Assembly: GCA_017516865.1 (NCBI GenBank)
Contig: JAFXAU010000025.1
Coordinates: forward strand, 57,971-121,970
Source: Bacteroidales bacterium
GTDB lineage: Bacteria > Bacteroidota > Bacteroidia > Bacteroidales > UBA1715
DNA length: 64,000 bases
Reading direction: 5' to 3'
Positions 42,907 to 45,411 of the stretch are shown here, piece by piece; position 1 is the stretch's first letter; each line of letters opens with the position of its first letter. The translations under genes were made by a program, and so were the position numbers. The notes beneath the pieces are model-generated. The model ran no database searches. It was not told the DNA's origin and saw only the letters and a list, made by a program, of their open reading frames with translations.

Positions 42907-43776
42907 ATGCAAAAATTAGAACCAAACGACCCCTGCTGGTGTGGGAGCGGAAAGAAATACAAGAAATGCCATTGGCTTCAGGATTGTGAACTCGACAAAT
43001 ATCGCCGCGAAGGCTTTCGAATTCTGCCTCGGACAATTTTATATTCTGCCGAGGAAATTGAGAAAATCCGTGCTGCCGGTGCGTTGAACCATGCCGTGCT
43101 CGATATGGTTCAGTCGGAAATCAAAGAAGGTGTTTCCACCGAACATCTCGACAATCTTGTGCGTGAATTTACCTACGACCACCACGCCATTCCTGCGTGT
43201 CTGAACTACGAAGGTTTCCCAAAAAGTTGCTGCATCTCCATCAACGAGGTTGTGTGCCACGGCATTCCTTCGCCCGACAAAATCATAAAAGACGGCGACA
43301 TTGTGAATGTTGACTGTACCACAATTCTCGATGGTTATTTCGGCGACAGTAGCCGTATGTATTGCATTGGCAATGTGGCTCCGAACGCCCAGAAATTGGT
43401 CGATGTGGCAAAAGAATGTCTTGAAATTGGACTGAAACAAGTTAAGCCTTACGGCAGATTAAACGATATTGGCGATGCCATTGAACCGTATGCCAACGAC
43501 AACGGTTTCAGCATTGTACGCGACCTGTGTGGACACGGTATCGGCAAAAAATTCCACGACGAACCCGAAGTGGTGCACTACGCGCAGCCCCGTCAACGTG
43601 GCGTGCTGATGGTTCCTGGCATGGTTTTCACCATAGAGCCAATGGTAAACGAAGGTACGTGGAAGTGCAAATTCCTGAAAGACGGCTGGACAGTCATCAC
43701 TGCCGACAAAAAACTCTCCGCCCAGTGGGAACACACGCTGGTGGTGACGGAAAATGGGTATGAGATTTTGACGTAA
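42907..43776 (+). CDS. map: Type I methionine aminopeptidase with N-terminal SEC-C motif
   Basis: NDPCWCGSGKKYKKCH; CISINEVVCHGIP, GHGIG..FH, FTIEPM, SAQWEHT. Confidence 0.96.
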   Translation: MQKLEPNDPCWCGSGKKYKKCHWLQDCELDKYRREGFRILPRTILYSAEEIEKIRAAGALNHAVLDMVQSEIKEGVSTEHLDNLVREFTYDHHAIPACLNYEGFPKSCCISINEVVCHGIPSPDKIIKDGDIVNVDCTTILDGYFGDSSRMYCIGNVAPNAQKLVDVAKECLEIGLKQVKPYGRLNDIGDAIEPYANDNGFSIVRDLCGHGIGKKFHDEPEVVHYAQPRQRGVLMVPGMVFTIEPMVNEGTWKCKFLKDGWTVITADKKLSAQWEHTLVVTENGYEILT

Positions 43777-43823
43777 TTCACAATTCACAATGCATAATGC
43801 ACAATTCACAATGAAAAATTAAC
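43775..43823 (+). repeat. Tandem heptamer array, 7 units of AAT(T/G)CAC type
   Basis: AATTCAC AATTCAC AATGCAT AATGCAC AATTCAC AATGAAA AATTAAC, starting inside the map stop codon. Confidence 0.9.
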
Positions 43824-43833
43824 ACCACAACCA

Positions 43834-44190
43834 ATGAAAAAAGATGCCGACAACATCATTATTGTTAAGAGTAAATCTTTTGCCCTTGAAATAATACAGA
43901 TTTATTCATATCTGTGTGATACAAAGAAAGAGTATGTTCTTTCCAAGCAAATGCTTCGAAGCGGAACAAGCATAGGGGCGAATGTAAAAGAGGCTGTTCG
44001 TGCCCAAAGCAAAGCTGATTTTCATGCAAAAATGAATATTGCGCTTAAAGAAGCAAGCGAAACTGAGTATTGGTTGGAATTACTTACAGAGTCAAAAATT
44101 ATTGTTAAAGAACAAGCGGATCAACTACTTTTCCGTTGCCGAGAGCTTCTACGAATGTTAACTTCTATCGTAAAAAATAGTGTCGCATAG
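43834..44190 (+). CDS. Four-helix-bundle protein (23S rRNA IVS protein / TIGR02436-like)
   Basis: KS..FA..I, LSKQMLRSGTSIGANV.EA..AQSKADF..K..IALKEASET.YWLELL. Confidence 0.92.
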   Translation: MKKDADNIIIVKSKSFALEIIQIYSYLCDTKKEYVLSKQMLRSGTSIGANVKEAVRAQSKADFHAKMNIALKEASETEYWLELLTESKIIVKEQADQLLFRCRELLRMLTSIVKNSVA

Positions 44191-44218
44191 TAAATTTCAT
44201 ATTTCACACCGCATGACA

Positions 44219-44267
44219 ATACATTGCACATTGAACATTATGCATTGTGCATTGTGCATTGTGCATT
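44219..44267 (-). repeat. Tandem heptamer array, 7 units, inverted relative to 43775-43823
   Basis: ATACATT GCACATT GAACATT ATGCATT GTGCATT GTGCATT GTGCATT (reverse complement AATGCAC). Confidence 0.9.
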
Positions 44268-44280
44268 TTTTCGTATTGTC

Positions 44281-45411
44281 ATGACAAAAGCTGGAATATA
44301 CATCCACATTCCCTATTGCGCTAAGCTTTGCTACTACTGCGATTTTCATTTTAGTCTGAATTTGAAAACGCGGGAGGAGTTTGTAAGTGCTGTTTGTGAG
44401 GAGTTGCGTATGCGGAAGAATTTCGTTGCGGCTCCTGTTGAAACGTTGTATTTTGGTGGAGGAACGCCGTCGTTGTTGAGTGTTGAGGAATTACGGAAAA
44501 TCTTTTCGGTTATTCGGAAGAATTTTGTTGTTCAGCCGTGGGCTGAGGTTTCGTTTGAATGCAATCCCGACGATATTACCGAGGAATATTGCAACGCCTT
44601 GCGTGATTTGGGCATAAACCGTTTGAGCATCGGGATTCAGTCATTTTTCGACGATGACCTTCGTGCGCTCAACCGCCGTCATTCTGCCGAATCAGCACGA
44701 AATGCAGTGAAAATTGCACAAAAAGTTGGATTTCAGAATATTACCGTTGATTTGATTTACGGTCTTCCCAATATGACGGTGGAACGATGGAAACAAAATC
44801 TTGCCGAAGTCGAAAAACTCAACGTACAACATTTATCGGCGTATTCGCTTATGGTAGAGCCACATACGGCGCTCAACACGTTTGTTCGCCGTGGAACAGT
44901 TCATTTGCCGACGGAAGAATCCGTTTTGGAACAATTTAATTATTTGATTGACTGGTCGGAACAAACAGGTTTTGAGCAATATGAGATTTCGAATTTTGCC
45001 CGTAACGGTATGTATTCACGGCATAATTCATCGTATTGGACAGGCGAACCGTATCTCGGAGTCGGTCCGTCGGCGCACTCGTTCGATGGCGAAAAACGTT
45101 ATTGGAACATTGCCCACAATGCAAAATACATTGCGTCCATCAAACAAGGAATTCTTCCCTGCGGAACCGAAACATTGTCACTTCGCGACAAATATAATGA
45201 ATTGATATTGACTGGTTTGCGGACAAAAAAAGGTATTTGTTGCGAAACAGTAAAAACGCTATTTTCCGATTTTTTCTTCTCTTTCGAGCAGCACAAAAAA
45301 ATCTATCTTGCACGAGAGCTTTTACAAGAACAGAATGGCAACATTTCGCTCACACGCAAAGGTATAATGCTGTCGGATGCGATTATGAGCGATTTCTTCG
45401 TGACGGAATAA
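44281..45411 (+). CDS. hemW: Radical SAM heme chaperone HemW
   Basis: YIHIPYCAKLCYYCDF, YFGGGTPS, YEISNFA, HNSSYW; ATG 44281 preferred. Confidence 0.92.
   Translation: MTKAGIYIHIPYCAKLCYYCDFHFSLNLKTREEFVSAVCEELRMRKNFVAAPVETLYFGGGTPSLLSVEELRKIFSVIRKNFVVQPWAEVSFECNPDDITEEYCNALRDLGINRLSIGIQSFFDDDLRALNRRHSAESARNAVKIAQKVGFQNITVDLIYGLPNMTVERWKQNLAEVEKLNVQHLSAYSLMVEPHTALNTFVRRGTVHLPTEESVLEQFNYLIDWSEQTGFEQYEISNFARNGMYSRHNSSYWTGEPYLGVGPSAHSFDGEKRYWNIAHNAKYIASIKQGILPCGTETLSLRDKYNELILTGLRTKKGICCETVKTLFSDFFFSFEQHKKIYLARELLQEQNGNISLTRKGIMLSDAIMSDFFVTE

Follow-up and report, generated by a model that had tools for sequence, protein, structure and literature searches.

What is a small gene doing between two mirror-image sets of tandem seven-nucleotide repeats inside an operon, and is such an arrangement peculiar to one site? 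The question is raised by a stretch of 64,000 nucleotides (the window) from a Bacteroidales bacterium (assembly GCA_017516865.1, contig JAFXAU010000025.1, positions 57,971 to 121,970). Between the genes map and hemW of the window lies a four-helix-bundle gene of the PF05635/TIGR02436 family (43834-44190, plus strand, 118 aa), bracketed by inverted heptamer arrays that are referred to below as arms. An earlier note, made from the sequence alone, had described it as an element like the intervening sequences (IVS) of 23S rRNA, placed in an mRNA operon. We compared the locus with its relatives in the same genome, the bacterial family, the phylum and beyond. It is one member of a very widespread conserved cassette consisting of a ~120-aa PF05635 gene and inverted arrays of ~3-7 heptamers, the sequence of which is specific to each locus.

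Inverted heptamer arrays enclose the PF05635 gene of the window

The upstream arm (43775-43824, plus strand) contains five good AAT(T/G)CA(C/T) heptamers and two degenerate ones (AATGAAA and AATTAAC), about seven units in all. It begins within the stop codon of map: the TAA occupies 43774-43776, the first AATTCAC unit starts at 43775, and after GACG the order is TAA TTCAC, AATTCAC, AATGCAT, AATGCAC, AATTCAC, AATGAAA, AATTAAC. Tandem Repeats Finder (TRF) reports this array at 43775-43812 (period 7, 5.4 copies, 87% matches), and a period-14 row stretches it to 43824. The downstream arm (44222-44267, plus strand) is made of ~6.6 (G/A)TGCATT-type units, the reverse complement of the upstream units; TRF gives period 7, 4.6 copies and 96% matches for 44236-44267, and period 21 with 2.2 copies, or ~6.6 GTGCATT-type units, for 44222-44267. 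Between the last nucleotide of the array (44267) and the hemW ATG (44281) there is a gap of 13 nt. Between them, the arms form an inverted repeat of 32 nt at 88% complementarity (43782-43813 with 44236-44267), with longer versions of 39 nt at 82% and 54 nt at 74%. The earlier note's picture of inverted arrays of about seven units around the open reading frame (ORF), the second ending 13 nt before hemW, is therefore accurate.

The 118-aa protein matched PF05635 (E = 1.7e-28, 99.4 bits, cut-off 33.8), TIGR02436 "four helix bundle protein" (E = 6.4e-32, 110 bits, cut-off 24) and chain A of PDB entry 2rld (E = 5.3e-33), the sequence of which is present as five chains in that one entry. PF05635 was the sole Pfam match, and no nuclease, transposase, recombinase or HUH domain was found among Pfam families. 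The motif reported as conserved in the family, GxxRxxxSxxxNxxE (PMC3936711), is represented by R42, S46, N50 and E53; read by eye, the leading G is replaced by K in the window protein. In an alignment of 48 sequences (A1), R42, S46 and N50 were at least 90% conserved and Q39, E53 and E76 were invariant. The family member S23p of Xanthomonas campestris (Xcc0516) is described as a toroidal homopentamer of four-helix bundles (PMC4990558), and the PF05635 family as homologous to Avd, a protein of diversity-generating retroelements (DGRs), the shared fold forming a pentamer (PMC10053308). The kinship with an oligomeric Avd that had been put forward for the window protein thus agrees with published accounts.

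Scans of the locus for other features were negative. No Rfam family matched 43500-44500 at E values up to 1, PADLOC gave no match at the locus, and no target-site duplication was visible by eye at the junctions in the window. In a promoter and terminator scan of the cassette, run without a Bacteroidota-type promoter model, no signal stood out.

Inverted arms accompany PF05635 genes across phyla

The studied genome (G000; 2.66 Mb, 31 contigs, 99.4% complete) contains three full PF05635 genes and one weak match; the control genome of Bacteroides thetaiotaomicron was likewise positive for the family. All three full genes are bracketed by inverted heptamer arrays, which belong to two unrelated unit families. 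The two other full copies (L001 and L002) both sit in polysaccharide-type loci, with GAGAGTT/GAGACGA heptamers upstream and the reverse complement CTCTCAA/TCGTCTY downstream.

To extend this comparison, PF05635 genes were collected at three levels. The family is present in 21 of the 24 genomes of the window's own bacterial family and was matched in 155 of 201 sampled genomes of the phylum, with up to 16 matches per genome. A wide set came from a pattern scan of species genomes with a second alignment (A2), from which the best 80 of 596 relatives were used; the relatives listed belong to Chlorobi, Planctomycetes, Acidobacteria, Clostridia, Actinobacteria, Fibrobacteres, Elusimicrobia, Cloacimonadota and Omnitrophota, as well as to several proteobacterial classes and five candidate-phyla-radiation groups. 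Flanks of 110 nt were taken from 54 of 58 family and phylum loci and from 76 of 80 wide-set loci, those dropped being at contig ends, in runs of N or around mis-sized ORFs. Each locus received an inverted-arm score: the downstream flank was reverse-complemented and compared without gaps to the upstream one, and the best match was taken, with a threshold of at least 13. A strict detector (80% identity over at least 21 positions) had passed 8 of 54 loci, and autocorrelation and TRF were used in its place to assess the repeats.

The inverted-arm score reached the threshold at 97 of 130 PF05635 loci: 39 of 54 in the family and phylum and 58 of 76 in the wide scan. Within the wide scan it did so at 40 of 49 loci with names outside Bacteroidota and at 18 of 27 with Bacteroidota names. 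By comparison, neighbouring ORFs passed in 5 of 83 cases, most of which shared an arm with the cassette or lay in array-rich loci; the upstream flank set against the downstream flank of another locus passed in 3 of 76, and a locus's own flanks in direct orientation in 9 of 76. The recurrence of inverted arms is significant (Fisher p = 4e-25), and the flanking arrays that the earlier note had proposed to seek at paralogues were found both within the genome and across phyla.

The arms share their period rather than their sequence. Autocorrelation of the flanks at lag 7 was 0.444 upstream and 0.431 downstream, against ~0.28 at other lags, with peaks of 0.44, 0.41 and 0.39 at lags 7, 14 and 21. 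A tandem repeat was detected in 198 of 260 arms; the best TRF period was 7, 14 or 21 in 132 of them and 8, 16 or 24 in 33. The unit itself differs by locus (GTGGTTA, CGTGACT, AGTGACG, CAGTAGT, ACGGTTC and TAAGATT are examples), and the complementarity of the two arms alone is conserved. Paralogues within single complete genomes have differing units, and orthologous sites in different genera keep theirs. At a site between thioesterase and thiolase genes, two cassette lineages are found in one genus, in which arms and protein sequence change together. Some loci (L036, L040 and L047) have an upstream array only, because the next gene starts at the cassette stop codon.

Three further features of the cassettes were noted. 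Units of 8 nt occur in some of them (L272 of G124, L286 of G148, L072 and L066; for example TGAACTCC seven times), and the period is thus not strictly seven. The stop codon of the PF05635 gene often opens the first downstream heptamer (TAACCAC, TGAACCG or TAACAAC, for example at L142, L156, L170, L171, L055 and L050); since the unit is 7 nt long, three copies of a unit with a stop triplet place a stop in all three reading frames. A conserved motif of ~35 nt, TTTTGTAAGGAATT...GTCTTAC, lies upstream of the syntenic cassettes L276, L280, L282, L285, L272 and L286 and may be a promoter or an RNA element.

Most cassettes lie in the sense orientation within operons. Co-directional ORFs of at least 80 aa were present within 200 nt on both sides at 89 of 124 loci, and both neighbours were antisense to the cassette at 2 of 124. 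The median spacers around the cassette were 56 nt and 50 nt. Eighteen PF05635-type genes have also been reported within cas operons (PMC3936711).

The polysaccharide loci of the studied genome display arrays beyond those of the PF05635 genes. At L002 (C2:263212-266923) and L001 (C2:289646-292417), GAGAGTT-family arrays fill several successive intergenic spacers. Around galE in the L001 locus the array orientation alternates and galE is likewise bracketed by inverted arrays; the L002 locus has an orphan array after a fucose-synthase-like gene. One PF05635 copy lies directly 3' of a UpxY/NusG-like antiterminator gene, identified by eye. Other inverted-array enclosures in the genome are galE and a 2.8-kb stretch, both in polysaccharide loci; two inverted array pairs spaced 511 and 608 nt have no convincing ORF between them. 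The weak match to PF05635 (29.5 bits, profile positions 1-73; C12:81519-81740, L004) falls within an ORF of ~205 aa that is conserved in three congeners (also G004:C54 and G001:C400) and may represent a diverged or fused family member.

The map-hemW site is occupied, empty or re-armed among relatives

The host genes of the window's cassette are map, encoding a type I methionyl aminopeptidase (42907-43776, plus strand; from the ORF list, with Peptidase_M24 and SEC-C domains and TIGR00500 at 333.6 bits), and hemW, encoding a radical SAM haem chaperone (44281-45411, plus strand; Radical_SAM and HemN_C, TIGR00539 at 282.1 bits). We surveyed the spacer between them in relatives, ordered here by what it contains, with the identity of map as a measure of distance. 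In G003 (map identity 99%) the 118-aa protein is identical and the upstream arm has one heptamer fewer, the arms of both genomes being AATKCAY/RTGCATT. G004 (97%) encodes a protein that is 64% identical, between arms AATGCGT/ACGCATT, and G011 (88%) one that is 50% identical, between arms RRTTATG/CATAAYY. Two relatives with a map identity of 92% have no ORF: G013 has a 17-nt spacer, TTCACAATGCATTATT, that amounts to about two heptamers fused as a palindrome, and G005 a 27-nt spacer without an array. In G002 (89%) an ORF-less spacer of 112 nt keeps RRTTATG-type arms at its ends and has a small inner inverted repeat. L020 and L022 (71%) have spacers of 284 and 183 nt without an ORF and with a single AATTAAR array just upstream of hemW, and in two more distant genera (L024 and L026; 63-67%) the spacer is 21 nt long or the genes overlap.

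This survey indicates that the adjacency of map and hemW is old and that, whichever state is ancestral, congeners may have the cassette intact, lack it, or carry it without its ORF or with other arms. The empty sites anticipated by the earlier note do exist, in G013 and G005. In a tree of the window's subfamily, built on a short protein and with most forks open, the map-hemW copy of G011 grouped with a copy of G007 from another site and not with those of G000 and G004 (support 94/97, unstarred), which is a slight indication that the G011 copy is not a simple orthologue.

The arms belong to the dispersed heptamer arrays of the genome

The studied genome holds 137 merged period-7 arrays as detected by TRF, or 5.1 per 100 kb; TRF rows with at least 3 copies, counted without merging, numbered 7, 25, 8 and 22 at periods 5, 6, 8 and 9. 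The arrays are mostly intergenic (122 of 129 scored) and some operons have them in several successive spacers. Orphan arrays, which do not flank a PF05635 gene, showed no orientation bias relative to transcription in this genome (53/50 and 39/38). Array length has its mode at 31-33 nt (35 of 137), 33 arrays contain exactly five cores at 7-nt spacing, and a near-identical 32-nt five-unit element recurs at several sites. The arms of the studied cassette are of the commonest unit class among these arrays. A point that the earlier note does not make is that heptamers are not private to this gene: such arrays occur genome-wide, and the arms fall in the most frequent class.

Members of three unit families were counted as 21-nt windows with one mismatch allowed, the reversed-pattern controls giving 0-5 per genome. 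For AATKCAY, AATGCKY and RRTTATG respectively, the counts were 119, 52 and 17 in G000 and 105, 43 and 20 in G003, the map-hemW arms of both being AATKCAY; 15, 58 and 7 in G004, with AATGCKY arms; and 0, 0 and 22 in G011, with RRTTATG arms. In all four cassette-bearing genomes compared, the map-hemW arms are thus of the most abundant of the three counted families. In G013 (93% complete), where no PF05635 gene and no cassette were found, the counts were 12, 0 and 0. Farther away, an acidobacterial genome (G241) has 235 arm-family windows at more than 100 sites, many as close inverted doublets, and a Pirellulaceae genome has ~8 sites of the arm family.

The sampled density of arrays tracks the presence of the gene. 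Period-7 arrays were counted with identical TRF settings in samples taken blind (fixed coordinates or first contigs). Seven PF05635-free genomes had 0, 2, 1 and 1 arrays per 100 kb in the phylum sample and 1.0, 2.3 and 0.9 in the window's own family (8 in 702 kb); ten PF05635-bearing genomes had 2, 5, 5, 3, 2, 4 and 2 in the phylum and 5.3, 5.7 and 5.5 in the family (38 in 971 kb). The rates are 3.92 per 100 kb with PF05635 and 1.14 without, a ~3.4-fold difference (Mann-Whitney one-sided p = 0.0016; conditional binomial p = 3.6e-4; both ignore phylogeny, and the samples are small). As arms amount to only ~0.5 per 100 kb, they cannot account for this difference by themselves.

Arrays beside PF05635 genes can also be found in a published repeat table. 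Rehm et al. list 186 arrays of the GGGAATC-type family in the genome of X. campestris (Xcc) (PMC4692102); in their supplementary file 2, repeat #15, with four GGGAATC-type units, is 6 nt away from bccP and overlaps the start annotated for XCC0516 (PMC4692102), the gene of the crystallised PF05635 pentamer. Repeat #14 of Anabaena, 129 nt of GGGGAYT units, starts 1 nt downstream of alr0548 and stops 55 nt short of alr0549 (PMC4692102), a gene listed as a four helix bundle protein (PMC8491059).

Two side observations concern the arrays of the studied genome. A second dispersed repeat of ~45-55 nt, beginning GGTGAGATGCCTCA(C/T)TCCGTTCGGCATGACG..., directly abuts heptamer arrays at at least five sites (C16:37820-37870, C26:92474-92520, C2:153150-153203 in reverse, C31:106480-106532 in reverse and C25:4473-4520), with a related copy at C2:240085-240115; it could be an element like a miniature inverted-repeat transposable element (MITE) or a small RNA. 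Two arrays are very long, C27:59262-59514 (253 nt) and C31:151827-151972 (146 nt). The former switches from GAGAGTT-type to GTGCATT-/GAGCATT-type units within one tract, which suggests that unit families can interconvert or fuse.

Predicted pairing of the arms and RNA-library contigs across the cassette

The duplex predicted between the two arms of the window as RNA has a free energy of -36.6 kcal/mol, compared to a mean of -10.8 (sd 2.8) and a minimum of -21.6 for 300 shuffles, and the minimum free energy fold of 43740-44300 pairs both arms around the ORF. The imperfect duplex foreseen by the earlier note is accordingly within the capacity of these sequences.

A local hairpin (44212-44283, plus strand) competes with this pairing. 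Its perfect stem of 11 bp, CATGACAATAC with GTATTGTCATG (44212-44222 and 44273-44283), surrounds the downstream arm, and the 3' strand includes the hemW ATG at 44281-44283. In a by-eye sequence comparison with the congener G003, limited to this one genome pair, an A to G substitution in the 3' strand turns one stem pair into U.G, so that pairing is preserved; this wobble-compatible change lies in the local hairpin, outside the arms. Because the hairpin and the long-range stem of the arms are mutually exclusive in nested folding, the two could act as a switch for the translation of hemW, a suggestion drawn from that single genome pair.

Logan contigs assembled from four rumen/gut RNA libraries cross both junctions, from map into the cassette and from there into hemW, DNA carry-over being possible, and one contig of 473 nt spans the locus from array to array. 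Upstream-arm alleles with one and three units fewer were present among these contigs. Relative to the flanking genes, the summed contig depth rose 10-100-fold at the two arrays (43759-43809 and 44218-44268; up to 766, compared with 2-8), which indicates that many other loci or organisms contribute AATKCAY arrays to the RNA-library material. A contig joint 43798>44236, seen in one run (depth 2.15, side 24), was set aside as most likely another locus or a repeat artefact.

Discussion

The protein family of the cassette is that of the 23S rRNA IVS that carry an S23p/PF05635 ORF in Leptospira, Coxiella, Xanthomonas and Brucella. The Coxiella IVS is located in helix 45 of the 23S rRNA and its inverted repeats form a 28-bp stem enclosing the S23p ORF; two or three tandem GACAGAT heptamers and a degenerate one, in strain-variable number, precede the start codon, and RNase III cuts the stem in vitro, its 5' cut falling where the first repeat begins (PMC4990558). 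The studied cassette resembles it in having terminal inverted repeats able to form a stem and tandem heptamers upstream of the ORF, and in both cases no promoter of their own has been described and the element rides on the host transcript. It differs in its host, which is the map-hemW mRNA operon and not helix 25 or 45 of 23S rRNA, and in that the flanking RNAs have to stay translatable; any processing in this setting is proposed by analogy. The link that the earlier note had drawn to an RNase III-cut IVS agrees with the Coxiella data (PMC4990558), and as a statement about architecture its IVS-like element in an mRNA operon is supported by the recurrence of the cassette, by the states found among congeners and by the Coxiella layout.

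On these grounds we put about even weight on the reading of the locus as an IVS-type cassette that lacks a promoter of its own, is transcribed with the operon and whose arms fold back for a cut by RNase III, the protein perhaps recognizing the arrays. In a first step the arms would pair in the polycistronic transcript into an imperfect stem of ~30-50 bp, tolerant of register, which loops out the ORF. RNase III would cut this stem as it does in the 23S rRNA IVS that encodes a member of this family, so that map, cassette and hemW would end up on separate RNAs and polar damage to the operon would be limited. In a second and less certain step, the presumably pentameric protein may recognize heptamer arrays: the arms around its gene and also the orphan arrays of that unit family dispersed elsewhere. 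Recognition of this kind would account for the unit family that arms and orphan arrays share within a genome and for the tracking of gene presence by the sampled array density. The RNase III mechanism is preferred by analogy: the Coxiella IVS has the same parts in the same order, and an RNase III homologue is encoded in the genome.

A number of observations weigh against this reading or restrict it. The fold of the whole region 43740-44300 has a modest z of -1.97, one of 100 shuffles folding equally well, and its centroid structure leaves the arms unpaired, with a local hairpin in the 3' region instead. In 97 aligned arm pairs (2571 matches, 247 transversions), mismatches giving G.U in the sense RNA numbered 158 and those giving A.C 142 (p = 0.39). 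There is hence no RNA-specific signature; the result lends no support to an RNA structure, yet it is not decisive against one. The mismatch counts mean that the stems are ~80-90% complementary, loose and not kept pair by pair, and the arms look as if they were maintained through the turnover of entire units and not through compensatory changes at single positions. The RNA evidence consists of assembled contigs, which cannot show RNA ends and which break at repeats, and the RNase III homologue scores 157.8 bits, just under the NCBIfam cut-off of 166.25. Across phyla, 33 of 130 loci are under the inverted-arm threshold, and the arms of L087 (G045) and L102 are in direct orientation; neither a stem model nor a model of terminal inverted repeats explains these two loci, in which CAGCAGCCAGTAGCC... 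and GGGACTG/GGGATTA, respectively, stand on both sides. Regarding the protein as a reader of arrays, a Ruminococcus genome (G242) has the arm family at the cassette only, so that a genome can do without orphan arrays; the density comparison spans 17 genomes uncorrected for phylogeny, and its groups overlap at 2 per 100 kb. Arm copy number (median 4.3, mode 4) misfits a strict model of one unit per pentamer subunit. Such a match was considered, as arrays in the studied genome peak at five cores, and was retained as a loose idea only, arms peaking at four. Three Xcc arrays in a published supplementary table have four units each (PMC4692102).

The competing explanations share much of this evidence, and the readings as RNA processing, as a DNA element and as regulation are not mutually exclusive. 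Pairs such as RAYT/REPIN, or insertion sequences (IS) and MITEs, consist of a single gene flanked by inverted copies of a dispersed short repeat that partly occurs as inverted doublets, with repeat families matched to the gene copy. By analogy with their non-autonomous progeny, the cassette could be a mobile element at the DNA level in which the inverted arrays are terminal repeats (double-stranded ends or single-stranded DNA hairpins), the protein is an end-binding factor recruiting host enzymes, and solo arrays and ORF-less doublets are non-autonomous descendants. We consider this main rival somewhat unlikely, although it accommodates a good part of the data: the differing presence of the cassette at map-hemW, with G013 and G005 lacking the ORF; the ORF-less inverted doublet of G002, which shares its unit type with the G011 cassette; the position of the G011 copy beside one from another site; the orphan arrays of the arm family dispersed in several genomes, with close inverted doublets many in G241 and two in G000; the recurring 32-nt element; and the many cassettes at contig ends. 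Equal counts of G.U and A.C would also fit maintenance at the DNA level. The cassette is like RAYT/REPIN in that inverted copies of a repeat family dispersed over the genome stand on either side of the gene, but the gene has no Y1/HUH or other transposase domain, its repeats are 7-mers in tandem and not unique palindromes, and the sites are often stably syntenic. Compared with IS and MITEs, terminal inverted repeats are present, as tandem heptamers, and neither a transposase in cis nor a target-site duplication was found. The solitary PF05635 match and the negative PADLOC result count against a DNA element, as does vertical inheritance, which is indicated by same-unit cassettes at the same sites across genera. 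The orientation bias of 89 against 2 is unlike random transposition, though selection could filter insertions, and inverted repeats cannot delete the ORF via simple homologous recombination. As for the selfish unit envisaged by the earlier note, stable synteny across genera at several sites, the sense bias (89 against 2 of 124) and the lack of a G.U excess over A.C speak against taking it as purely selfish and freely mobile.

If mobility and RNase III are both left aside, the arrays could be operator-like sites, the pentamer binding those around its own gene and the orphan ones, as DNA or RNA, and regulating expression, termination or mRNA stability. We regard this as unlikely. In its favour are the toroidal pentamer and the Avd homologue of the family (PMC4990558, PMC10053308), the mode of array length and the 33 five-core arrays in G000, the match of arms to the most abundant counted orphan family in four genomes, the abutment of arrays on stop codons, start codons and terminator-like hairpins, and the tracking of gene presence by sampled array density. 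On the other side, a protein that binds single strands would be shown two different, complementary arm sequences, which leaves the inverted layout without obvious use. Moreover, 21 AAGAATT-class arrays of G000 (by best TRF unit, among 152 period-7 rows) have no matching PF05635 gene, G013 keeps a few arrays although no PF05635 gene was found in it, and the orphan arrays of G000 have no orientation bias. That generic, slippage-prone intergenic repeats merely happen to flank a small gene is very improbable. It is true that the genome has 137 such arrays, nearly all of those scored being intergenic, and that some operons have them in successive spacers, but coincidence is contradicted by the counts of 97 of 130 against 5 of 83 and 3 of 76, by the arming of all three full genes of G000, and by arms that are complementary to each other and differ between loci. 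Least credible of all, with a probability close to nil, is a role as the accessory protein of a DGR. Avd binds nucleic acid. The PF05635 family is like Avd in its homologous four-helix-bundle fold that forms a pentamer (PMC10053308), and the paralogue at L001 matches phrog_3206, "Avd protein of DGR" (E = 3.9e-10). Unlike a DGR, the locus has no context of template and variable repeats, and it is flanked by map and hemW. A search of the 99.4% complete genome for reverse transcriptase (PF00078) was negative, control genomes having given matches, and the window protein did not match that PHROG family.

Dispersed bacterial heptamers, described as LSSR/STRR, include GGGAATC in Xanthomonas, GGGGAYT in Nostoc and TAACTGA in Beggiatoaceae, Cyanobacteria and some Bacteroidetes (PMC4692102, PMC4679880). 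They are like those of the studied genome in being intergenic arrays of a few 7-nt units in genome-specific families, and many Xanthomonas arrays form convergent inverted pairs (PMC4692102). In contrast to the published repeats, the arrays described here are tied to one specific gene, which they bracket. Both studies propose G-quadruplexes or translational regulators, and their main texts make no mention of the PF05635 family (PMC4692102, PMC4679880). A wider proposal, tentative and on balance doubtful, is that bacterial heptanucleotide repeats have in PF05635 pentamers their missing partner in trans, each ring reading ~4-5 consecutive units. The armed cassette would then be the autonomous form. 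Orphan arrays and ORF-less doublets, as in Xanthomonas, Nostoc, acidobacterial and Prevotella-like genomes, would descend from it and depend on it or would form its regulon, and the 23S IVS would be one landing site among others.

The protein family, its pentamer and homology to Avd, the processing of IVS by RNase III, the heptamers of the Coxiella IVS and heptanucleotide arrays as a genome feature are already known. Three findings are apparently new: that inverted tandem heptamers, with a unit peculiar to each locus, bracket PF05635 genes across phyla, that these genes lie sense-oriented in operons, and that their arms belong to the dispersed heptamer arrays of the genome, which the presence of the gene tracks. 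Full-text literature searches, covering few subscription journals, gave no link between PF05635 and heptamers beyond a local remark in the Coxiella paper; earlier notice is possible.

Few small protein families of unknown function are as common as PF05635/TIGR02436. The heptanucleotide repeat class has been known since 1990, and such arrays have been reported several times, from Cyanobacteria, Xanthomonas, Beggiatoaceae and Bacteroidetes, and left unexplained; the present data connect them with PF05635. If the proposal of a trans-acting partner is true, the family with its thousands of unexplained copies and the heptamer repeats would be two halves of one system. The link between array and gene makes both puzzles testable at the bench, through binding of the pentamer to arrays and release from mRNAs by RNase III. 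If the arms bring about self-excision at the RNA level, this would explain how the gene is tolerated cheaply in essential operons, in cas loci (PMC3936711) and in rRNA genes, and the cassette would provide a natural design for the insulated insertion of a gene into an operon.

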